Of a DNA stretch of 64,000 bases, positions 1 through 59,232 are shown piece by piece. Source of the DNA: Candidatus Stammera capleta (GTDB taxonomy: Bacteria; Pseudomonadota; Gammaproteobacteria; Enterobacterales; Enterobacteriaceae); NCBI GenBank assembly GCA_015134335.1, contig CP043975.1, positions 84,350-148,349 of the forward strand. The letters are read 5' to 3'. The position numbers were made by a program, and so were the translations under genes. Below the pieces are notes generated by a model, which saw only the letters and a list, made by a program, of their open reading frames with translations, was not told the origin of the DNA and searched no databases. Every line of letters starts with the position of its first letter. Within the stretch, counting starts at the first letter, position 1.

Positions 1-286
1 ATCCAAAATATTTAAGATTATTTAAATCATCATATAAATATATTTTATTAGTATAATTCCTTTTAATACTATTTAATAAATTATTTTTATCCATACCTAT
101 TCCATTATCTATGAGCTTAATCAAACTAATACCTTTATTTATAAAATATAATTTAATTAAATTTGATTTAGCATCTAAACTATTTTCTAATAATTCTTTA
201 ATTATATGAAATAATTTTCATAAAGATTCTCCTTGAGATAATTTATTAATAGTATCTTCAGGTAATAATTTTATTTTATTATACAT
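1..286 (-). CDS. mutL: DNA mismatch repair protein MutL, N-terminal part (gene continues beyond the left edge)
   Basis: ATG at 284-286 on the minus strand. Translation is MYNKIKLLPEDTINKLSQGESLW(TGA)KLFHIIKELLENSLDAKS...LIDNGIGM. This carries the GHKL ATPase motifs of MutL (ELxENSxDA, DNGxGM). Confidence 0.85.
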
Positions 287-7729: not shown

Positions 7730-10153
7730 TTAATATTTATTTAACAAATTAAAATTTTTTTTAAATTTTTTAAATAATATTAATGATGTTTTAATAATTA
7801 TTTTTGGTAATCCAGTTTTTTTAGCAACATAAAAAGAACAACTATTATTACAATAACCCTCTTTGATTTTATATAAAAAAATAATATTATTATTTACTTT
7901 TATATAATTAAAATAAATTTTTTTTATATTTTTATATAAATTTCCTATATTCAAAATTTCAAAAAAATGAGTTGAAAACAAAGTTATACATTTTATATAT
8001 TTAGATATATAATTTAAACAAGACCAAGATAAGGCCATACCTTCATAAAAAGATGTACCACGACCCATTTCATCAATTAATATTAAACTATTTTTAGTTG
8101 CATTATTTATAATATAAGAAATTTCAGACATCTCAACCATAAAAGTTGATTTATTATCCATAATATCATCAGAAAATCCTATTCTGGTCAAAATTTTATC
8201 TATAATTCCAATATAAGCTTTAGTAACAGGTAAATAACTACCTATGCAACCCATTATACAAATAATAGCTATTTGCCTCATATACGTACTTTTACCTCCC
8301 ATATTAGGACCTGTTATAAACAAAGTTCTAACAAATTTATTATCGATAAAAAAATCATTACTAATAAATTTATCATCCAAATAATTTTCTAAAACAGGAT
8401 GACGACTATCTTTAAAATAAATATAAGAATATTTTTTAAATTTAGGCTTTTTATAATTATAATGAATAGCTATATAAACAAAACTAGACAAAACATCTAA
8501 TTTAGCTAAATATTTAGATATAATTTGTAAATCTACAATATAAAAAATAATTTTTTTTATAATTTTATTAAAAATTTTACTTTCTAATATTATTATTTTT
8601 TTTCTATTATAAAGAACTTTAATTTCAAATTCTTTTAATTCAGTAAAAAAAAATCTTATATGATTTTTTAAAGATTTAATTTTTATATAATGACTAGGTA
8701 TTAAATTAAAATCTTTTTTATTAATTTGTATATAATAACCATCTAATTTACTATAAATAATATGTAAATTTGATATATTATATTTTATTTTTTCAGAATT
8801 TTCTATATTAGAAATATATTTATAAACACTATTATCAAATTTCCTTAAATTATCTAATTTTTTACTATAACCTTTTTTAATTATAAAATTATTATCTAAG
8901 CTTTTTTCTTCTATAGAAGAACTTATTAAAAAAATAATCTTTTTTAAAATATTATATTTTTTATATAAAAAAAGAAATATATTATGTCTATTTATAGAAT
9001 TTTTTTTTTTATTAAATAATTTAATAATATTCAATATAGATTTTAAAAATATATTTAATTTTAATAAATCTTTAAATACTGCATTTTTTAAACAAATACG
9101 ACCTAAAACACGCTCTAAATCACCTATTTTTCTTAAAAAAAACCTTAACTCATCATTTCATAACCAAATAATATTCATTATAAAATGCCTATCTTTTAGT
9201 TTAATAAAATCAAAAATAGGATTTATAATTCATCTTCGTAACAAACGACTACCCATTGGGGTTAACGTTTTATCTAAAAAATATAATAAAGAATTTTTTT
9301 TATTATTATATAAAGAACTAATCAATTCTAAATTAGATATTGTATTAAAATCAATAAATATATACTTATTTTTTTTATTATATTTTATTAAATTAATATG
9401 TTTAAAATTAACTAATTGAGTAAATTTAATATACTTTAACAAACATCCAGCTGGAATAATTCCCATATTGTTAAAGCTAATATTAAAAATATTTAAATTA
9501 GAAACCTTAAAATGATTTAATAAAATTTTTAAAGATTTATTATACGAAAAATATTTTATAGAAATTTTATTATAAAATATATTTTTATTTTTTATTAATA
9601 ATATATTAAAATTTTTATTTGAATAAAGAACTTCCTTAGGATTCGTTTTAAAAATTTCACTCTTTAAATCATTTACATTTTTAAATTTAAATAAATTAAA
9701 CTTACCACTAAAAATATCTATTACAGAATAATAATAAATATTATTATATAAATAAATACAACTTATTAAATTATCATATTTCTTACCTATATAATAACTT
9801 TCAGAAATAGTACCTGGAGTAATTATTTTAAAAACTTTTCTTTTCTTTAAAGAAAGATCTTTATTTTTAAGACTATTATTAACTTGATTACAAATAACAA
9901 CAGATTCACCTAATTTAATTAATTTTAAAATATATCTTTTACTGCTTTTTAAAGGAAGACCTGCCATAGGCACATTTTTTTGTTTAACAAACTTTTTAAA
10001 AGTTAATTTTAAATTCAATAAATTAGATATCTTTATAGCATCATCATAAAATAATTCATAAAAATCTCCTATTTGATAAAACAATAATATCTTTTTATAT
10101 CTTTTTTTAATATTTAAATATTGTTTAATTATAGGACTCAAATATATAGACAT
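7730..10153 (-). CDS. mutS: DNA mismatch repair protein MutS (intact under UGA=Trp)
   Basis: Track ORFs 9230..10153 and 7730..9034 are one frame joined through TGA codons at 9230-9232 (LDKTLTPMGSRLLRRW) and 9158-9160. Walker A is GPNMGGKST, followed by DEMGRGTS. 807 aa. Confidence 0.92.
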
Positions 10154-12714: not shown

Positions 12715-13044
12715 ATGTATGCAATTATTAATATATTAGGACATCAATTTAAAATAAAGAAAAATATTAATATAACAACACAAAAAATAAACGAAAAAAC
12801 AGGAACAATAATTAAATTAAATCCCATTCTAATATTAAATAAAAAAAACAATATAATTATTGGAAAAAAATTAAATAATTATATAATACATGCTATTATT
12901 AAAAAACATTTTAAAAATAAAAAAATAACAATAATAAAATTTAAAAGAAGAAAAAACTATAAAAGAAAAATAGGACATAGACAAAATTTAACTATATTAA
13001 ATATAATATCTATTAAAAAAAAAAAGAAAAAAAATGGCACATAA
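12715..13044 (+). CDS. rplU: 50S ribosomal protein L21
   Basis: [16 protein letters not shown]...[18 protein letters not shown]. Its 3' end overlaps the rpmA start by 11 nt. Confidence 0.88.
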
Positions 13045-15311: not shown

Positions 15312-17076
15312 ATGAAAAACATTAAATTAATTTTTTGAATAATAGTTACATTAATATTATTATATATAATTAACCTTAATATTTATGAACATCCTTATAT
15401 TAATGAAATTAATTATTCTAATTTTTTAATGGATTTAAAAAATAATATTATTAAAAGAATAAGAATTAATAATAAAGAATTAAATATAATAACTAATTAT
15501 GATTATGCATATAAAGTATATATGCCCTTTAAAGATACTAGCTTAATTAATAAATTAATTAAAAAAAATATATTAATAGAAACTAACAATAATAATAATC
15601 ATAATTTTTTAATATCATTAATTATTTCATGATCTCCGATTTTATGTACATTAATTATAATAATATTATTAATAAAATACATTATTAATAATAATTTAAC
15701 ATTATTCAATAATAATAAAGCACAAAAATATAATAAAAATTTTAAAATAAATTTTAAACAAATAGCAGGATGCGAAGAAGTTAAAAATGAAATAACTGAT
15801 ATTATAGAATATTTAAAAAAACCTAAAAAATTTAAAAAATTAGGAGCTAAAATTCCTAAAGGAATATTAATGATAGGTCCTCCTGGAACAGGAAAAACAT
15901 TATTAGCTAAAGCAATAGCCAGGCGAAGCTAAAGTTCCTTTTTTTAATATTTCAGGATCAGATTTTGTTGAAATATTTGTAGGAGTTGGAGCAGCAAGAA
16001 TGAGAGCAATGTTTCAAAAAGCTAAACAATTAGCTCCAAGTATAATATTTATAGATGAAATAGATGCTGTTGGAAAAAAACGATCATCTCATCAATTACA
16101 AAGTAATGATGAAAGAGAACAAACTCTTAATCAAATGTTAGTAGAAATGGATGGTTTTAATAGTCAAAAAACAGTTATAGTTATTGGAGCAACAAATAGA
16201 CCTGAAGTTTTAGACAAAGCTCTACTTAGACCAGGTAGATTCGATAGAAAAATAATAATAAATTTACCAGATTTAAAAGGCCGTTATAAAATACTAAAAA
16301 TACATATAAAAAATATTCCTGTTAAAAAAAATATTGATATTAAAACAATAGCAAAAAGTACTTCTGGATTTTCTGGTGCAGATTTAGCTAATTTAATTAA
16401 TGAAGCAGCATTATTAGCAGCAAAAAAAAATCTTAAAAAAATTACTAATAAAGAATTAGAAAGCTCTAAAGATAAAATAATAATGGGAGCTTCTAGAAAA
16501 TCATTAATAATGAATCAACAACAAAAAGAATTAACAGCATATCATGAATCAGGGCACGCTATTGTAAGTATAATGGTACCATATCATGATCCTATACATA
16601 AAATAACTATTATTCCTCATGGTCAATCATTAGGTACAACTATGTTTTTACCTAAAAATGACAATATACTATTAAAAAAAACATTATTAGAAAGCAAAAT
16701 TTCTGCATTATATGGAGGAAGAATAGCTGAAGAAATAATATACGGATTTGAAAACATTTCTATAGGAGCTAGCAATGACATTAAAATAGCTACATATTTA
16801 GCTCAAAAAATGATAACTAAATGAGGTTTTTCTAAAAAAATAGCACCATTAATATATAATAAAAATATTTTAAATAATAAATATATATATTCAGAATATA
16901 TTAATAAAATAATTGATAAAGAAATACAATATTTAATAAAAAAAAATTATAAAATAGCTAAAAAAATATTAACTAAAAATATCAATTTGTTACATAAAAT
17001 GAAAAAAAAATTAATAAAATATGAAACATTAAACAAAAAACAAATATTTAATTTAATTAAAAAATATTCAATATAA
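15312..17076 (+). CDS. ftsH: ATP-dependent zinc metalloprotease FtsH, interrupted by a +1 frameshift at about 15920/15921
   Basis: Frame 0 (15312-15929) encodes the TM segments and Walker A ([15 protein letters not shown]), then AGG CGA AGC TAA. Frame +1 from 15922 encodes [31 protein letters not shown]...[11 protein letters not shown]...[10 protein letters not shown]...HESGHAIV...W GFS..., ending at TAA 17074-17076. Confidence 0.85.
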
Positions 17077-18799: not shown

Positions 18800-20503
18800 A
18801 TGAATATTAAAAAAAAAAAATATTTAAAATTTAACAAAAATATTAATAAAAAAAATAATAAAATTAAAAAAAAATTAAAATATAAAAAAAATATTAACTT
18901 AATAAAAAAAAAACAAAAAAACCAAAATATAACTAATAACAAAACTTTTAATAACAATTATTACAAAAAATATAAAAATTTAAAAAAATTAATATTATTA
19001 AAAAGACCTAAAGGTAACTTAATTAAACAAAGACCTCCTATAATTACTATTATGGGACATGTAAATCACGGAAAAACTTCTTTAATAGATTGTATAAAAT
19101 CATCTAAATTAGTAAATGATGAAGTTGGTAACATTACTCAACATATTAATGCATATAATATAATTCATAAATTAGGAAAATTTACTTTATTAGACACCCC
19201 TGGACATGAAACATTTTTTGATATGCGTAAAAGAGGAATTAAATTAGCTGATTTAATAATATTAATAATAGCTATAGATGACGGTATAATGCCACAAACT
19301 ATAGAAATTATTAAATATAACATAAAATTTAAAATTCCAATTATAATTGCAATTAATAAAATTGATAAAATAAATTATTTAAATAACATTAAAACAATTA
19401 AACAAAAATTACAATTTTATAATATATTACCAAAAAAATTAGGTGGTAATAATATTTTTGTAAAAATATCTACTAAAAAAAATTTAGGTATAAATAAATT
19501 AATTAATTCTATATTTAACATTTCCTTTAATTTAAAATTAAAAACAAACATAAACCAAATGGCTGAAGGAATAATATTAGATTCAAGTATAAACAAAAAT
19601 ATTGGATTTATTTCAAAAATATTAATTAAAAAAGGAACATTAAAGATAAATGATATCATATTATGTGATGATAGTTATGGAAAAATAAAAAATATATGAA
19701 ACGATAACAATATAAAAATATATTCAGCATCACCTTCAATGGCAATTACTATTTCTGGAATAAACAAACAAACAAAATTAGGAAAAAAATTTATTATAAT
19801 AAACAATTTAAAAGAAGCAAAAAAATTATCTAATATAAAATTAATAATTAATAAAGAAAAAAAATGAAACAATATAACAAATAATAATTTAAATAATTTT
19901 AAAACATTAAAACCCCAGAATAATAAATTAAATATTTTATTAAAAACTAATTCTATTAGTATAATTAAAACTTTAAAATATTTTATTAAAAAAAATATGA
20001 ATAAAAAAATACATATAACCTATTATAATATAGGAGATATAAATGAAAATGATATTTTATATGCAAAAACAACTAATTCTATTATTATAACATTTAATAT
20101 AAATATTAATAATAATATAAAAAAAATAAACCAAAATAATATTAAAATATATAATTTTAATATAATATATAAATTAATTAATAAATTAAATAAATTATAT
20201 TCAAAAAAAATAATAAATAAATCAAATCCTATAATATTAGGCAAAGCTATTATACAAGATATATTTAAAATTTCTAAATTAGATTGTATAGCAGGATGTA
20301 AAATTATAGAAGGATTTATTAATATAAAAAATAAAATTCAAATTATAAGAAATAATAATAAAATTTATCAAGGAACAATTAAATCATTACAAAAATTTAA
20401 AGAAAAAATTAATATTATACACAAAAATTCAGAATGTGGAATACATATAAAAAATTTTAATAATATAAAAATAAATGATCAAATTATTTCTATTAATGAA
20501 TAA
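18800..20503 (+). CDS. infB: translation initiation factor IF-2 (shortened N-terminus)
   Basis: G domain: IMGHVNHGKTSLID, DTPGHETF, INKIDK. Track ORFs 18800..19699 and 19997..20503 are in the same frame, joined through TGA codons. Confidence 0.9.
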
Positions 20504-32871: not shown

Positions 32872-33906
32872 ATGATACATAAAATATTATTAATATTACT
32901 TACATTTTTTGCATCTAATAGTGGTTTATATGGTATAAATCATAATTTTAAATATACTAATTTATATATAGGAAATCAAATAGGTTTATCAAATTATACT
33001 AACTTAAAACAATTGAGTAATAATTTAAAATATATAAAAACTAATATAAAAAATAATAATTTAGGTTATGGTAATTTTTTAGGATATAAAATTAATAAAA
33101 ATTTTAATTTAGAACTTGGGTACAATAATTTTGGAAAAGTTTATAAAAAAAGTAAATTTGTAAGTGGATTTTTTATAACAAAAGGAATTACATTATGTAA
33201 TAAATTTAATTATAATATAATTAATAAAACAACAAATTTATATACTAAAATAGGATGAATGATATTAAAATCTCAAGCTCAAAAAAGTAATATTATTAAT
33301 CATAATAAAGAAACAACATCTTATGTTAAAATGACTCCATTAACATCTATAGGAATAGAATTTAACATAAATAAAAATTGAATTACTAGATTAGATTATC
33401 AATGAACTTATAATGTAGGTCATAGAAATTATTTATATGAAGAACCTAATAATAATTTATTAACATTTAATATAATTTATAAAATTTCTAATTTAGAAAA
33501 TTTTAATTTAATTAAAAAATATTTCATTTATATTTATAAAATATATAAAAATTTTAATTTAAATATTATAAATAAATATAATTATAAAAAATATATTAAT
33601 AATTATAAAAACAAATATAATAGAAATAATTTAAATCTAATTAATATATTTAATTATTTTAAATATAAAAATTTATATATTATAAATATAAAGATATTAA
33701 ATTTAATAAATAATAAAAAATTAATTTTAAATAAAAATTTAACAAAAATTAATCCATATATAAAATATATAATAAAATATTTATATTATAAAAAAATTAG
33801 GAAATCTCAAATATTAATAAAAAACAAATATATAAATAAAAATATTAATAAAAATAATATATTATTATTAATAAAATATAAAAAGTTAAATAATTTAATA
33901 AAATAA
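32872..33906 (+). CDS. ompA: OmpA-family outer membrane protein (beta-barrel recognisable, C-terminal domain highly degenerate)
   Basis: Signal-like N-terminus MIHKILLILLTFFASNSG. Barrel strands: ...GYGNFLGYKINKNFNLELGY...TKIGW MILK...ITRLDYQW TYNVG...LLTFNIIYKI (E. coli ATRLEYQWTNNIGD...MLSLGVSYRF). A relic of NQGLSERRAQSVVDYL survives as NKNLTKINPYIKYIIKYL. An AAGGA Shine-Dalgarno sequence is present. Confidence 0.72.
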
Positions 33907-33935
33907 TAAAATTATATTATTATATTATTATATTA

Positions 33936-34011
33936 TTAAAAACCACTTAATTTTTTTATATAATATTATATAAAATTTTAGATATAAAATTATTTAATAA
34001 GTGGTTTTTAA
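33936..34011. repeat. 14-bp perfect inverted repeat (TTAAAAACCACTTA / TAAGTGGTTTTTAA) with a 48-nt spacer, between convergent genes
   Basis: Arms at 33936-33949 and 33998-34011. The spacer contains a second palindrome, TTTTATATAAT|ATTATATAAAA. The repeat lies between the ompA stop (33906) and the exonuclease stop (34018). Confidence 0.7.
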
Positions 34012-34017
34012 AATATT

Positions 34018-34834
34018 TTATTTTAATATATTAAATATATTTTTATTAACAATATAATTATTAATTTTAAAAGATAATTTTATTTTATTACTAAAACTTA
34101 ATAATCTATATCAAATTCTAATATTATAAAAGTTATTTTTAATATTATTAATAATATTAATATTAATTCCATTAAGTAAAAGTATATTTAACTTATTATA
34201 TAAATTATATATATCTCCTACAATATTAATTATTTTTACTCCTGTTTTAATACCTATTCCTCTTATACCTGGAATATTATCACTTCTATCACCTAATAAA
34301 ACAAATAAATCTTTAATTAAATATGGATAAACACCATATTTTTTATAAATATTATTAATATTTCATATTTTATTAATATATGTATATAAAAAAATTTTAT
34401 CATTAATTAATTGTATAAAATCTTTATCATATGATAAAATATATATTAATATATATTTATAATAATTATTTAATTTTTTAATTATATTATAAATAATATC
34501 ATCTGTTTCAATATTTTTAATACATATAATTTTAATATTTAATAATTTTAATTTTTCTTTAATTAATTTTATATATAGTAAAAAATTTTTTGAAGGTTTT
34601 TTCCTATTAGATTTATATAATTTAAAAATATTTTTTCTATAATTATTATTGTTATTATTATCAAATATAAAAATAATATAATTTGGTTTAATATAATTAA
34701 ATCTTACATATATCATTTTTATAAAAATTTTAATAGATTTTATAAAATTTTTTTTTTTTATAATTAATTACATAATATGCTTTATATGCAAATAATGTTG
34801 AATCAACTAAAAATATTTTTTTATATTTAATCAT
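34018..34834 (-). CDS. polA: 5'-3' exonuclease (PolA N-terminal domain only), frameshifted in an A12 tract
   Basis: The ATG at 34832-34834 gives MIKYKKIFLVDSTLFAYKAYYVINYKKKK (E. coli LILVDGSSYLYRAYHAF), then stops at 34730-34732. The rest is in another frame: NFIKSIKIFIKMIYVRFNYIKPNYIIFIFD...ETDDIIY...SYDKDFIQL...W...KYGVYPYLIKDLFVLLGDRSDNIPGIRGIGIKTG... to TAA 34018-34020. The two frames meet in the 12-nt homopolymer at 34748-34759. No polymerase or 3'-5' exonuclease domains follow. Confidence 0.85.
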
Positions 34835-35176
34835 TTTATTATATTAATTTTAATATTTTTATTATATTAATTATTATAAATATATTTTTAAAATAATTTA
34901 TTTAATTTAATTTATATTAAATAAATTAACATTATATATATTTATATTATCTTATATATTTTAATTAATTAAACTATTTAATTAACTTAATACTTTATAT
35001 ATTATTATTGAGCTATTACTTCCAAAAAATTACATACAACACATTAATTTTATTAGTTTACTAGATAAATTATTATAAATCAATATTAAATTTTAAATTA
35101 TAAAAAAATTTTAAATATAATATTGATTATTAAAATTAAATATTTTATAATTACAAATTATTATAATATTATTGAA

Positions 35177-37075
35177 ATGTTATTTACAAAAAGTTATGAT
35201 TATAATGTTATTATTGTAGGAGGAGGTCATGCTGCTATAGAAGCTTCATATATATTAAGTAAAAAAAAATGTAGAACTTTATTAATAACATTTAATAAAA
35301 ATAAAATTGGAGAATTATCATGTAATCCTTCTATTGGTGGATTAGGGAAAAGTAATTTAGTAAAAGAAATTGATTCTTTATCAGGATTAATGGGTAAATT
35401 AGTAGATTTATCAGGTATTAATTATAAAATTTTAAATTCTAGTAAAGGTTATGCTGTAAGAGCTACTAGAGTACAAATTGATAAAGAATTATATAAAAAG
35501 AATGTAATATATTATTTAAATAAAAATAAAAAATATTTACATATTATAGAAGATGAAGTAATTGATTTGGTTATTTATAATAATATTGTATGTGGAGTTA
35601 AAACTCTTAAATATATAATTACTTCTTATATTGTAATTTTATGTGTTGGAACTTTTTTAGATTCTAAAATATTTATAGGTAATGATATTATTTATGCGGG
35701 GCGTTTAAATGATAATGGGTCTTATAAATTAGCTTTTAATTTAAAAAAATATTATCCATATTTTGGATATTTAAAGACTGGTACTCCTCCTAGACTAAAT
35801 AAATATACAGTAAATTTTAGTAATTTAGAAAAACAAGTTAGTGAAATAAAATTAATATCTAAATTCTCTTTTTTTAATTCATTAAGAAAAAATAAATTTA
35901 TTAAACAACATAATTGTTATTTAACATATACAAATTTAAATACTCATAAAATTGTTATTAAAAATTTATATAAAAGTCCATTATTTAATGGTTTGATAAA
36001 TTCTAAAGGTCCTAGATATTGCCCTTCTTTAGAGTATAAAATATATAATTTTTTAGATAAAAATCGACATAATATTTATTTAGAGCCTGAATCAATTTAT
36101 AATAATTATATTTATCCTAATGGGCTTTCTATGAGTTTTCCTTTAAATATTCAATATAAAATTATAAAATCTATAATGGGTTTAGGTTTTTCAAAAATAA
36201 TTATACCAGGATATTCGGTTGAATATATGTATTTAAATCCAATTTTTTTAAATAAAACTTTAGAAAGTAAGGTAATAAATAATTTATTTATAGCTGGTCA
36301 AATTAATGGTACTACAGGATATGAAGAAGCTGCAGCTCAAGGTTTAATTGCTGGTATAAATTCTTATTTAAAAATTAGTAATAAAAAATTATTTATACCT
36401 AAAAGATTAAATTCTTATATAGGTGTATTAATTGATGATTTATGTACAAAAGGTATTAAAGAACCTTATAGAATTTTTAATTCTAGATCAGAATTTAGTT
36501 TGTATTTGAGAGAAGATAATGCAGATTATCGATTAACTCCTATTGCTAAAAAATTAGGTTTAATTAATAATAAGAAGTGAATTTTTTTTAAAAATAAAAT
36601 GAATCAAATATATAAAATTTCAAAATTTATTATTAATAAAATTTATAATATTAATGATTTAAAAACTAAATGACAAAAATTATATAAAAATAAAAAAACA
36701 ATTCAAGCAAAATCTTTAATTTGTAATTCTTGTATTAAATTTAATAAAATAAAAAAATTTATTTTTAAAGATAAAAAAAAATTTTTATCTAATAAATTTT
36801 TAAAAGAAATAAAAATATTATTTATATATAAAGGTTATATTAAAAGACAAAAATTAGAACTTTTTAAATATAAATTATATGAAAAAATTTTATTACCTAA
36901 TAAGATTAAATATGAAAATATTAAAGGTTTATCAAACGAAGTAATACAAATATTAAATTATATTAAACCAAATTTTTTAGGTCAATTATTAAGAATTTCG
37001 GGGATAACTCCTATATCTCTAATGATTATTTATATTTATCTTAAAAAGCATAAATTAATTAATATTGTTGATTAA
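35177..37075 (+). CDS. mnmG: tRNA uridine 5-carboxymethylaminomethyl modification enzyme MnmG (GidA)
   Basis: MLFTKSYDYNVIIVGGGHAAIEA...CNPSIGGLGKSNLVKEIDSL...LKTGTPPRL...GPRYCPSLE...AGQINGTTGYEEAAAQGLIAG...REDNADYRL. Extended through TGA 36578-36580 to ...GLSNEVIQILNYIKP..LGQLLRISGITP. TAA at 37073-37075. Confidence 0.93.
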
Positions 37076-43967: not shown

Positions 43968-44038
43968 GCGAATATATTATAAAGGTATTATATTAGCCTT
44001 CCAAGCTAATAATGTGGGTTCGAGTCCCACTATTCGCT
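43968..44038 (+). tRNA. tRNA-Gly (anticodon TCC)
   Basis: GCGAATATATTATAAAGGTATTATATTAGCCTTCCAAGCTAATAATGTGGGTTCGAGTCCCACTATTCGCT aligns with E. coli glyT. Confidence 0.88.
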
Positions 44039-46618
44039 TTTTATATTTATATATATATTATTTTTAATATTAATTATATTTTTAAATTTATTTAATTTTT
44101 TTATAATTTTAAATTTTATTTTTTTTATATAATAAATTTTTAATAAATATATATTTTTCTTAATAATTTTTTTTTCAGTTTTTGATAAATTTATAATTAT
44201 TAATTTTTTTATATTATTAATTTTATTTTTTTTTAAAATTTTTATTATATTTTTTATTATATTAAATATATATATTGTTTTTTTGTTTTTATATTTTGAA
44301 TAATTTATATATTTTATAATTTTATAGCTTAATATAGATGGTTTTTTTTTGTTAAAAATATTATTTATGAAAATAATTTTTTTTCATATATATTCTGTTA
44401 AAAAAGGAATAATAGGATGATTTATTAAAATAATATTTATGAAAACAATTTTTAATATTATTAAATTATTAATACTTATATATTTACTTTTTTTATATTT
44501 AAAAATTTTTTTAAACAATTCAATAAACCAATTACAAAAAATAGTAATTAAAAATTTTTGTATTTTTATACATAGTTTTTGAAATTTAAAATTTTTAATT
44601 AATTTTTTATATTGTTTAAGTAATTTATTAAATTTATATAATATTCAATAATTTATTAAGTTTTTTTTTATATATTTATAATTAAAATTTATAATATTTT
44701 TTATATTATAATTTAAATTTTTATTATTTTTAAAAAATTTTATTATAAATTTAGATATATTTAATAGTTTATTACAAAAATTATAACTATTTTTTAAAAA
44801 TTGAAAATTAAAATTAATTTTTAGTTTGTTTGATGAAATATTATATAATGTATATCTTAAAATATCTGTTCCATAAGCGGGTATTCCATTAGGAAAATAT
44901 TTTTTAGTATTATTAATAATTTTTTTTTTTAAATTATTTTTAATTAAATATTTAGTTCTTTTAATTATTAAATTTTTTAAACTTATGCCATATATTATAT
45001 CTTTAGGTGTAATTATATTTCCTGTTGATTTAGACATTTTATTGCCATTTTCATCAGTTATTAATCCTGTTATTAATACTTTTTTAAAAGGTATTAAATT
45101 GTAGGATTTATTTAATAATAATGGTGTTATTATTATCATTCGTGCTATTCAAAAATAAATTATATCAAACCCACTTACTATTAAATTTATAGGATGAAAT
45201 TTATGTGAAAAATTTTTAGGTCATCCTAAACTAGTTAAAGTCCATATTGATGATGAAAACCATGTATCTAAAATATTAATATCTTGTTTTAAATAAATAT
45301 TTTTATTTAAGTTATATTTTTTAATGATATGTTTTTTATTATATCCTAAATATATTTTTTTAAATTTATCATATCAAATAGGTATTTTATGACCTCAACA
45401 AATTTGTCTTGATATACATCAATCTTGAATATTTTTAATTCAAGAAAATAATAAATTTTTATATTTATTAGGTATAAAAATTATTTTTTTATATTTAATA
45501 TATTTAAAACAATTTTTAGTTAATGATTTCATTTTTAAAAATCATTGTTTAGTAAGTATTTTTATAATTTTTGTATTAGTTTTTGTACTGTAAGAAACAG
45601 GTTTAATTATTTTAATTGTTTTATAAATATATTTATTATTTATTAAAAATTTTATAATTTGTTTTTTATTTTTATATATATTTTTAATATTATTTTTAAT
45701 TTTTATACATTTATAATTTAATATATTAATTTTTTTTTTTAAATTACCATTTTTTTTTAAAATATTTATAATGTTAATTTTTTTTTTTTTAGCTTTTTTA
45801 AAATGTGAAATTTTATGACCAGGAGTTAAATTAATATAATATTTTATATTTTTTTTTTTTTTTAAAATTATAGGTAATTTTATATTATTTATAGGATTTA
45901 TAATAAATTTATATTTTTTAATAGTTTTATCATTTGTTAAAATTGCTGTATTAGATAATAAAAGTTCAGGTTTAGTAGTAGGAATAATAATATATTTATT
46001 TTTAGTATTATATAATTTATATTTAATAAAATATTGTTTAACTTTTTTTTTTTTTTTATATATTTCTATATCAGATAAAACAGTTTTAATTTTTACATCT
46101 CAATTAATTATTTTATAATCTTGATAAATTAATTTTTTTTTATATAGAATAATAAATGCTTTTTTAACTGCTTTAGAATAATTTTTATCTAATGTAAATT
46201 TTTTACTTTTTCAAAATATACTATTACCTAATAATTTTGTTTCTTTATATATTTTATATTCATATTTATATTTTCATTTTCATAATTCTTTTATTAATTT
46301 TTTTTTATCATATATTTTATATTTTTTTTTTAAATAATTTTCCACAATTATTTGAGTAGATATACCTGCATGATCTATTCCAGTTAGTCAAATAGTATTA
46401 AATCCTGACATTTTTTTATATCTAATAATTAAATCCATTATAGCTTGTTGATAAGCATGTCCTAAATGTAAATTACCTGTAATATTAGGAGGTGGCATTA
46501 TAATAGAGAAATTTTTTTTATGTTTAATATTTTTGTTATTTGGATTAAATAATTTATTTTTAAGTCAAAATTTATAAATATTTTTTTCTTTTATTAAAAT
46601 ATTTAAAATATTTTTCAT
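44030..46618 (-). CDS. valS: valyl-tRNA synthetase
   Basis: 862-aa frame under UGA=Trp from the ATG at 46616-46618: ...PPPNITGNLHLGHA...W DVKIKTVLSDIE...TTKPELLL...IQDW CISRQICW GHKIPIW Y...LDTWFSS...VSGFDIIYFW IARMI...GNKMSKSTGN...FPNGIPAYGTDILR...NHPIIPFLTEYIW. The TAG stop at 44030-44032 lies inside the tRNA-Gly(TCC) gene on the other strand. Confidence 0.92.
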
Positions 46619-48742: not shown

Positions 48743-48769
48743 ATAAAAAAAAATATAAAATAAATAAAA

Positions 48770-48843
48770 CAGGGGCAGAAGGAATTGAACCCTCAACCTA
48801 TGGTTTTGGAGACCACTGTTCTACCTAATTAAACTATGCCCCT
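48770..48843 (-). tRNA. tRNA-Trp with unchanged CCA anticodon
   Basis: The reverse complement AGGGGCATAGTTTAATTAGGTAGAACAGTGGTCTCCAAAACCATAGGTTGAGGGTTCAATTCCTTCTGCCCCTG aligns with E. coli tRNA-Trp. Anticodon loop is CTCCAAA, discriminator is G73, and the D stem is GTTT/GAAC (U11:A24). Confidence 0.9.
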
Positions 48844-48857
48844 AATTTTTTTTTTAT

Positions 48858-58029: not shown

Positions 58030-59232
58030 ATGAAAATTTATTTAGTTGGCGGTTATGTAAGAGATAATTTGTTGGGATTAAAATCTATAAGTGATAAAGA
58101 TTGATTAGTAGTAGGAAGCTCTTATAGTAAAATGTTAAAATTAGGTTATAAGCCTGTAGGTAATTTTTTTCCTGTTTTCTTACATCCTATTACTAAAGAA
58201 GAATATGCATTAGCTAGAAAAGAATATAAAAATGGTTTAGGTTATAAAGGTTTTAATTGTGTTTTTGATAAAAGTATTTCTTTAGAAGAAGATTTATATA
58301 GAAGAGATTTAACGATTAATGCTATAGCAATGGATAAAAAAGGTAAATATTATGATCCTTATAATGGTTTAGAAGATATAAAAAACAGAATTATTAAACA
58401 TGTATCTAATTTTTTTAGTGATGATCCATTAAGATTAATTAGAGTTGCTCGTTTTAAAGCTTATTTATTTAATTTAAATTTTTATATACATAAAGATACT
58501 TATTTTTTAATGAAAAATATTGTTTTAAAAGGTGAATTATTATATATTTCTCCAGAAAGAATTTGAATAGAATTAAGAAAAGTATTAATTTTGAATAAAA
58601 ATATTTATATTTTTTTTAAAGTATTAAAAAGTTGTAATGCTTTATATATTATATATCCAGAATTAAATAATATATTTAATAGTAATATATTAAAATATTT
58701 TTTTAAGTTAATTTTTAGTAAATTAGAATTTTATAATTATGGTTATAATTTAAATTTTATTTTTTTGTTTTTTTTTTTTCATTATACATTTTTATATAAG
58801 AGTTTTTATGATAAAAAAAAATTTATTATTAATAGTATTAAAAATTTTTATAAAAAATTTAATTTACCTAAAAAATTATTTTTGTTATGTAAAAAAAGTT
58901 ATTATTTAATATATGAAATTTATATGTATAAAAAAAACATTGATATATCTATTTTTATATTGAATATTTTTTATAAAATTGATATTTGAAGAGATAATAA
59001 TTTTATTATTATAGTTTTAAAAATTATTAAAATTTTAAAATTAATTAATATTTATGATTTTTTTATATTAAATATTTTAGAAAAATATATATTAAAGGTT
59101 TTTACTAAAATTAATAAGATTAATTTTAAAAAATTATTAAAGATAAAAAATTTTAAAAATTTTGTAGATATTAAAAATTATATATATAATTTACGTTTGA
59201 GAAAAATAAAAAATATATTTTGTAATATATAA
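58030..59232 (+). CDS. cca: tRNA nucleotidyltransferase (CCA-adding enzyme), HD phosphohydrolase motifs not recognisable
   Basis: MKIYLVGGYVRDNLLGLKSISDKDW LVVG...VGNFFPVFLHPITKEEYALARKE...LYRRDLTINAIAMD...DPLRLIRVARF...ISPERIW, collinear with the E. coli Cca head domain. The C-terminal half is degenerate. Confidence 0.88.

Follow-up and report, generated by a model that had tools for sequence, protein, structure and literature searches.

How is a gene expressed when its start codon and most of its coding sequence lie in different reading frames? The question is raised by a locus in a 64-kb stretch of the genome of Candidatus Stammera capleta (the whole stretch is referred to here as the window), where a gene that is, from its domain matches, a stand-alone 5'-3' exonuclease (a flap endonuclease homologous to the N-terminal domain of DNA polymerase I) is out of frame at a run of 12 adenines. 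The reading preferred here, to which a rough probability of 0.45 is assigned, is that the indel may be genuine, that the gene would still be in use and that full-length enzyme would be made in part by a change of register within the run. Sequence alone cannot separate slippage read-through from a sequencing error in the length of the run, and that the tract length is real and that any rescue occurs are what we infer.

The frame break

The gene is encoded on the minus strand, where direct reading and translation with TGA as Trp place its start codon (ATG) at 34834-34832. The start codon opens an N-terminal coding segment of 25 codons, MIKYKKIFLVDSTLFAYKAYYVINY (34760..34834), which holds the catalytic Asp11 and from which the match to PF02739 runs from profile position 1. 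This is followed at 34748-34759 by the A12 tract of the mRNA (T12 on the plus strand), which encodes a lysine run and is the site of the frame break. Frame 0 from the ATG at 34834 reads MIKYKKIFLVDSTLFAYKAYYVINYKKKKFYKIY; it comprises a 29-codon N-terminal piece, MIKYKKIFLVDSTLFAYKAYYVINYKKKK, then FYKIY and, five codons past the tract, a TAA at 34732-34730, giving an open reading frame (ORF) of 34 amino acids (aa) at 34730..34834. The body of the exonuclease, NFIKSIKIF... through the H3TH domain, lies in the +1 frame (34018..34749); given code 4 for two internal TGA codons, it is open from the tract to a TAA at 34020-34018, and it is closed upstream of the tract by a TAA at 34770-34768. The first 28 residues, with Asp11, are separated in this way from the remaining 243. 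These coordinates, the two frames and the position of the tract had been proposed in an original prediction made from the DNA, and a minus-strand reading of 33900-35000 bears them out to the base.

Computed edits of the tract give a single ORF of 271 aa with A11 and of 272 aa with A14, so that both lengths restore the frame as had been claimed, with a product of 271 aa holding for A11 only. The restoring change is therefore -1 or +2, not +1. The joined-frame junction peptides are VINYKKKNFIK and VINYKKKKNFIK, and the tail of frame 0 is KKKKFYKIY. The same prediction held that the frames can be joined only within 34748-34759; homology does set the junction inside the tract, but mechanically a -1 or +2 change anywhere in 34733-34767 would serve, a zone that also contains a T4 and an A4.

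A list of ORFs under code 11 splits the exonuclease body at the two TGA codons, both of which are read as Trp under code 4, and one of them (NIRIW-YRL) is Trp in all orthologs called under that code. The gene caller also chose as start an internal ATG (Met40, 34714..34716), 13 nucleotides (nt) past the frame-0 stop, giving a product of 232 aa (P0001).

Identity of the protein

The repaired protein matches PF02739 (5_3_exonuc_N) with residues 6-167 over profile positions 1-164 of 164 (E 2.5e-29, 102.5 bits, cut-off 34.3), a match that is full-length only once both frames are joined, and PF01367 (H3TH / SAM-fold, 5_3_exonuc) with residues 169-263 (E 9.8e-15, 55.3 bits, cut-off 40). Because these Pfam domains are matched end to end, the 29-codon piece is the true N-terminus and not a chance ORF. 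The GDxSDNIPG motif is invariant across the orthologs aligned for this work. Among solved structures, the best match was to residues 13-222 of Taq polymerase, in which Asp11 of the LVD motif falls opposite Asp18 and residues D58, E109, D111, D112, D136 and D138 fall opposite D67, E117, D119, D120, D142 and D144. We take the listed Taq residues, D18 included, to be the conserved active-site carboxylates of the 5'-nuclease family, following the literature on Taq and E. coli DNA polymerase I. Their counterparts D11, D58, E109, D111, D112, D136 and D138 are invariant in the orthologs, and D11 sits on the severed piece. The original identification of that piece as the N-terminus of a PolA 5'-nuclease, with its catalytic Asp in the LVD context, is confirmed by the Pfam match from profile position 1 and by the pairing of D11 with Taq D18.

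In NCBIfam, the repaired protein matches the first ~258 positions of DNA polymerase I models, and also the models for stand-alone 5'-3' exonuclease, in both cases without reaching the equivalog cut-offs (best scores 171.5 bits against 720 for PRK05755; 116 against 305 for PRK14976.1-4). Such scores are expected of a polymerase-less protein of extreme composition, and the family membership rests on Pfam. The best named database matches are the polymerase-less PolA remnants of Buchnera, Riesia and the symbionts of Donacia, which have the same PF02739 + PF01367 architecture and ~270-300 aa. The genes of those symbionts are in frame, however, and their products are only 33-40% identical to the Stammera protein.

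State of the gene

The exonuclease gene was found in ~20 other Stammera genome records and read-set assemblies, always polymerase-less and encoding ~270-290 aa; retained in this way across Stammera, it is presumably indispensable. An alignment of 21 orthologs was used to ask how the window copy compares. Its N-terminus is 68-82% identical to the seven closest orthologs and its body 62-68%. Of the positions invariant in the 21 orthologs, 37 of 38 are retained and the single change is I to L; in a leave-one-out comparison, the other orthologs show between 0 and 6 changes at invariant positions, so that the window copy is no worse than they are. There is no second lesion in the 813 nt of the gene. 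What is found is thus a single frame-breaking indel inside an A/T run of at least 9 nt (A12, 34748-34759) in an otherwise intact gene.

Neither part of the gene shows a sign of relaxed constraint, a pattern that would fit a gene in use, a very recent lesion or a miscounted tract alike. The undamaged body had been taken earlier as an argument for continued selection; the lack of further damage stands, but a recent mutation or a sequencing error would explain it equally well. As the frameshift is not conserved (see below), gene intactness is the only ground on which the selection argument rests.

The lysine run in orthologs

The closest loci in the species-representative genome collection were all from Candidatus Stammera capleta (CP024013.1, CP043993.1 and three CP144xxx records). 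For eight orthologs (L001, L002, L003, L081-L085) the DNA across the junction was read. All eight are in frame through the lysine run, as are further database proteins that span the junction. In the three closest relatives with DNA read, 17 nt separate TAT (Tyr) from TTTT, for instance AGAAAGAAAAATAAAAA in L083 and AAAAAAAAAAATAAAGA in L085; the window has 12, a net difference of -5 nt. The sequence A12-T4 can be derived by one 5-nt deletion (TAAAA) from a hypothetical A11-T-A5-T4 ancestor that combines features of L085 and L083. The peptide of the closest relatives at this site is INY-K/R-K-K/R-N/I-K-N/D-F/L-x-KS. Downstream of the run, the window sequence AATTTTATAAAATC is identical to that of L083, where it is read N-F-I-K-S, and upstream of it TAT-AAA is read Y-K in all orthologs; it is this homology on both flanks that places the frame junction inside the tract.

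A comparison of tract length among related genomes had been proposed with the original prediction, and its outcome goes against a conserved frameshift: runs at the homologous site range from A5 to A13, in some cases with a G or T among the adenines, and none of them breaks the frame. Uninterrupted in-frame runs are A11 in L085 and L082 and A13 in L003. The frameshift is not shared across populations or species, every ortholog with a readable junction being in frame at the lysine run, and no conserved out-of-frame shift site of the kind expected for programmed recoding was found among the orthologs, in which tract composition and length vary freely. Since run length varies and all orthologs are in frame, the site is best seen as a mutational hot spot made by AT pressure on lysine codons and not as a conserved recoding signal. 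On these sequence comparisons, the window frameshift is a lineage-specific indel in a hypermutable lysine run.

In another strain (L088; Logan assembly SRR23946989), the contig terminates exactly in the A13 run (1-13) homologous to the window A12, a sign that assemblies may be broken here by differing run lengths among the reads.

A number of orthologs that start at the internal Met were considered as possible carriers of the same frameshift and set aside. P0016, P0022 and locus L004 are cut by contig or record ends; P0021 is a code-11 call beginning past an upstream in-frame TGA, and the break in its locus lies elsewhere; P0017 and P0019 keep the frame through the lysine run, their break also lying elsewhere.

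Frame breaks in other Stammera lineages

Homopolymer frame breaks occur within the first 30 codons of the exonuclease gene in up to 4 of ~20 lineages, the window included. In CP043983.1 (L081, 1470-1500), the sequence ATG-ATA-A7-T9-AATTGAT offsets the ATG by one base from the frame of the FFLIDS... body, and a TAA directly precedes the body frame. The same one-base offset is seen in L086 (Logan SRR23946973, 1080-1115) and L087 (SRR23946959, 25-60), which read ATG-AAT-A6-T9; these two are identical over the region compared and are possibly from the same source. In L091, a relative, the arrangement is A9-T8 and the frame is kept. Protein identity between the L081 and L086 lineages is only 74%, and the T9 break appears to have been inherited across substantial divergence in at least one case. 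In L082 (Logan SRR23946956, 1400-1425), ATG AAT A9 TTTTC puts the ATG out of frame; A10 would fix it, and the frame would be restorable by the commonest slip, +1.

Initiation at a codon other than ATG is possible for L086, in which an in-frame ATA is present, and for L082, but is hard to see for L081, where only TTA or ATT is left at the LID motif. The T9 site of L081 and L086 may accordingly be either an inherited, tolerated frameshift or the mark of an unusual start codon. The recurrence of frame breaks in other lineages raises the prior for a window break that is real and tolerated, although different tracts are involved.

The read set SRR23946959 yields two distinct Stammera exonuclease alleles (L085, of the P0005 type, and L087, of the P0021 type), which looks like library carry-over or a mixed sample.

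Possible routes to a full-length enzyme

In the preferred reading, a lysine-rich linker that follows the first strand-helix unit and is encoded almost entirely by AAA codons would have collapsed to an uninterrupted A12 in the window lineage, where a recent net loss of 5 nt relative to the closest relatives would have broken the frame. A minority of expression events would then change register inside the run and give full-length enzyme. This could come about by RNA polymerase slippage, yielding A11 or A14 transcripts; by a +1 slide of tRNA-Lys(UUU) and the ribosome on the A12 mRNA, yielding the same protein as an A11 transcript; or through genome copies, a minority of the total, whose tract length is in frame. 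The bulk products would be the 34-aa peptide and perhaps also an inactive 232-aa fragment from Met40. Ribosome sliding and heterogeneity of the tract among genome copies, which were not considered in the original prediction, are equally valid as routes of rescue.

RNA polymerases realign on A/T runs of ~9 nt or more, where the run fills the RNA:DNA hybrid, and produce mRNAs of several lengths (PMC5009743). The precedent in Buchnera and Blochmannia to which the original prediction appealed is a real one (PMC3017870; PMC5009743): eight genes of Blochmannia vafer, including dnaX and dnaG, carry single poly(A) or poly(T) indels (PMC3017870), and ~30% full-length transcripts are quoted in the same source, from Tamas et al. 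(2008), for frameshifted genes of Buchnera and Blochmannia. On repeated AAA codons, ribosomes of E. coli slip out of register (PMC4363877). A single tRNA-Lys was found in the window, and its anticodon is UUU. Transfer-messenger RNA (tmRNA) and a putative smpB are present in the window as well, and the two would be available to clear aberrant products if the latter assignment is correct.

The yield to be expected is another matter. CirSeq data from Buchnera put insertions of a single base ahead of other changes in A/T runs (151 of 157 insertions); deletions in runs are far less frequent (16 of 57 deletions), and none of the transcription errors observed restored a frame (PMC5574713). Because insertions of one base dominate in the runs of Buchnera, the rescue yield at the window tract is expected to be below that of a tract needing +1.

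Long A/T runs and a second frame break in the window

The window contains 81 A/T runs of at least 9 nt. Its intact coding sequences hold 29 runs that reach 10 nt or more, 17 of which reach 11 nt or more, all of them in frame. Among these are two A13 runs in putative pepA, A12 runs in putative orn and infB, and five poly(A) runs of at least 11 nt (A11, A11, A13, A15 and A15) in putative valS (44030-46618, minus strand), the names of these genes being a reading of N-terminal sequence and size. Three other window genes have in-frame 12-nt runs, at 780-791 and 18809-18820 (A12 in the mRNA) and at 58768-58779 (T12). Every A/T run of 7 nt or longer in the window was scanned for a long frame entering and another long frame leaving the run. 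The exonuclease tract was the only real case; the other matches were gene boundaries (e.g., rplU/rpmA) or antisense frames. An A11 at 13015-13025, taken up as a candidate second poly(A) frameshift, proved to be the normal overlap of the rplU stop and the rpmA start.

A frame break of a different kind is present in ftsH (15312-17076, plus strand), which is out of frame at ~15919-15925, directly past the Walker A motif, with both halves perfectly conserved. The DNA at the break reads GCA ATA GCC A GGC GAA GCT, with one extra base in a non-repetitive and locally GC-rich setting, and the two orthologs with DNA read have GCT ATA GCT GGA GAA TCT at this site. In protein searches, ~35 other Stammera FtsH are full length. 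Either the lesion is real and recent or the assembly is wrong here. In our judgement, an indel of this type is one that Illumina assemblies rarely make, which favours real recent mutations in the lineage. A Ty1/Ty3-like +1 ribosomal frameshift site (GCC-AGG-C) was considered here and rejected: the arrangement is unique, AGG is no starved codon here, with 24 uses in window genes, and no other Stammera FtsH is broken, so that a programmed site is unsupported.

Both mutS, full-length at 7730-10153 (minus strand), and the start of mutL at 2-286 (minus strand) are present by N-terminal sequence. If these calls are right, mismatch repair, the normal limiter of changes in homopolymer length, is not obviously lost.

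Weighing the explanations

Several observations weigh against a genuine indel with partial rescue. The window tract needs -1 or +2, when by analogy with Buchnera +1 would dominate and no restoring event was seen there. Efficient slippage on runs of at least 11 nt would cost putative valS much of its output, and the presence of five such runs in this gene means either that slippage is modest or that much waste is borne by the cell. A miscalled tract length would leave the gene looking just as intact. The break in ftsH shows that the record holds at least one other unexpected indel, which favours error. Finally, no second assembly of the same strain was present in the collections searched, where the matches of 100% identity were the window's own products only and an exact look-up gave nothing.

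A rival explanation is an artefact of sequencing or assembly, in which the real tract would be A11 or A14, the gene intact and the consensus a miscount of a 12-nt homopolymer. Long A/T runs are a classic site of length miscalls, and the L088 contig that ends in the homologous A13 run is in keeping with this. Neither half of the gene has a flaw and the N-terminus is unrelaxed, just as would be expected of an intact gene, and the single-base frameshift of ftsH in the same record, in an essential gene with ~35 intact orthologs, makes residual indel errors conceivable. The homopolymer lengths of the assembly appear to be mostly right, however, because each of the 17 other coding tracts that measure 11 nt or more (the longest being A15) is in frame, which argues for a low miscall rate per tract. 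A published set of 50 Stammera genomes was derived from 2x150 Illumina metagenomes, assembled with MEGAHIT and curated for local errors against the reads, with genes predicted under code 4 and pseudogenes called with Pseudofinder (bioRxiv 10.1101/2023.12.12.571295); if the window genome is a member of this set, a pipeline of this type should, in our judgement, recover the modal length of a 12-nt run. Homopolymer frame breaks also recur in the same gene in independent assemblies of other lineages. With these points taken together, an artefact is considered unlikely, while still deserving serious attention.

A genuine recent inactivation without meaningful rescue would make the gene a young pseudogene fixed by drift, with primer and flap removal handled otherwise or impaired. 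Gene erosion in AT-rich symbionts usually begins with poly(A) indels (PMC3017870; PMC5574713), the frameshift is unique to the window lineage, and the break of ftsH in the same genome could mean that decay is ongoing. Against this, the gene is kept in ~20 other Stammera assemblies and is in frame at the lysine run wherever the junction is readable; the 813 nt belong to an extremely fast-evolving genome and yet carry no second lesion and retain 37 of the 38 invariant residues; and no other 5'-nuclease was seen within the 64-kb window. Plain inactivation is for these reasons regarded as improbable.

Homopolymer frame breaks recur near the start of this origin-adjacent gene across Stammera lineages and in at least one clade seem to be inherited. 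It is also conceivable, then, that exonuclease expression in Stammera is routinely dependent on transcriptional or translational slippage, the tract being a heritable, tunable attenuator or a heteroplasmic on/off switch among the many genome copies and not mere damage; we hold this to be very unlikely.

More doubtful again is a functional, N-terminally truncated enzyme translated from the ATG at 34716, either by reinitiation or with the 34-aa peptide and the 232-aa fragment assembling non-covalently. The position of this ATG, 13 nt downstream of the frame-0 TAA, and its choice by the gene caller would suit such a product. But Met40 is internal and invariant in all orthologs but one, so that it is not a newly evolved start, and a protein without residues 1-39 would be without Asp11, the residue opposite Taq Asp18, and without about the first 35 positions of the Pfam N-domain; the chances of this arrangement are put at very few in a hundred.

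Programmed recoding, with the frameshift as a selected device that attenuates exonuclease expression, could draw on the way homopolymer breaks cluster within the first 30 codons, in as many as four Stammera lineages, and on the T9 common to two of them (74% identity), but it is hardly credible given that the sites differ by lineage (A12, T9, A9), that most lineages are in frame, that no stimulatory structure was seen (no search was made for one) and that the pattern is as expected from mutation pressure on K/F-rich, AT-only codons.

Comparison with known systems

The preferred reading has its nearest likeness in the frameshifted genes of Blochmannia and Buchnera (B. vafer dnaX, dnaG and pth). 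Shared with Stammera are the AT-rich, reduced genome of an obligate insect symbiont, a single indel in a poly(A) run of at least 9 nt in a gene that is otherwise undamaged, a role in the replication machinery and a rescue proposed to occur by RNA polymerase slippage. The Blochmannia and Buchnera cases, however, are confirmed in genomic DNA and by mixed transcript pools, and some are conserved between populations or species, whereas the Stammera frameshift is read from an assembly and is absent from every ortholog with a readable junction. Stammera also differs in being a beetle gut symbiont, from the foregut of tortoise beetles, with code 4 and 18% GC, and in needing a correction of -1 or +2.

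The A9 of Thermus thermophilus dnaX and the sites in insertion sequence (IS) elements (PMC5009743) are likewise runs of at least 9 A/T that permit the transcript to realign, but those sites are conserved and programmed and give two useful products, where the run in Stammera is a lineage-specific accident with one useful product. Ribosome sliding on poly(A) (PMC4363877) shares with the window tract the four AAA codons (A12) read by tRNA-Lys(UUU); in E. coli, however, it is described as lowering output and giving frameshifted by-products, and not as a rescue. A literature search on Stammera, its matches judged by titles and abstracts, gave no report of such a frameshift. The window tract is on this basis the first such case noted for Stammera, of a kind that is familiar from very small, AT-rich genomes of symbionts.

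Should the tract length be real, Stammera would be added to Buchnera and Blochmannia among the symbionts that depend on infidelity in decoding to express an essential replication gene at all. Stammera lives outside cells and lends itself to experiment, for at least one strain there are transcriptomes, and its long poly(A) runs are unusually dense; the in-frame 12-nt runs in three other window genes provide built-in controls for slippage, sliding and tract heteroplasmy. For annotation, the 232-aa product now called from Met40 is almost certainly not the biological protein. If the tract was miscalled, the finding has no biological content beyond a correction of the record.

Genomic context

The window has a GC content of 18.3% and uses TGA as Trp (code 4), with 110 uses of TGA and 7 of TGG in a rough code-4 gene set. 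It is held on a contig of 260,485 bp, and ~35 Stammera genomes of 240-325 kb are among the protein-search matches. The only tRNA-Trp in the window (48769-48844, minus strand) has the anticodon CCA despite this ratio of TGA to TGG; ARAGORN places the anticodon at position 36 of 76 nt. Bacterial tRNAs with 4-bp anticodon stems, together with the reassignment of UGA to Trp, are the stated subject of PMC13092985.

The exonuclease gene adjoins mnmG (35177-37075, plus strand). Cumulative GC skew reaches its minimum at ~34-36 kb, with a change of sign between the exonuclease gene (minus strand) and mnmG (plus strand), and the replication origin is on this account probably in or near the spacer between them (34835-35176, 13% GC). 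No consensus DnaA box (TTATNCACA) was found in this spacer. Several of the CP144xxx Stammera records are linearised inside the exonuclease gene.

A scan for promoters and terminators around the gene was uninformative in DNA of 13% GC, giving 35 promoter-like sites, where 28.8 were expected, and no site resembling a terminator. At 33936-33949 and 33998-34011 lies a perfect inverted repeat of 14 nt (TTAAAAACCACTTA / TAAGTGGTTTTTAA), which a simple terminator scan does not flag because its AT-only loop of 48 nt is too long. The repeat sits between the convergent OmpA-like and exonuclease genes and holds the only stretch of the spacer that contains G or C; it may be a bidirectional terminator or a processing signal.

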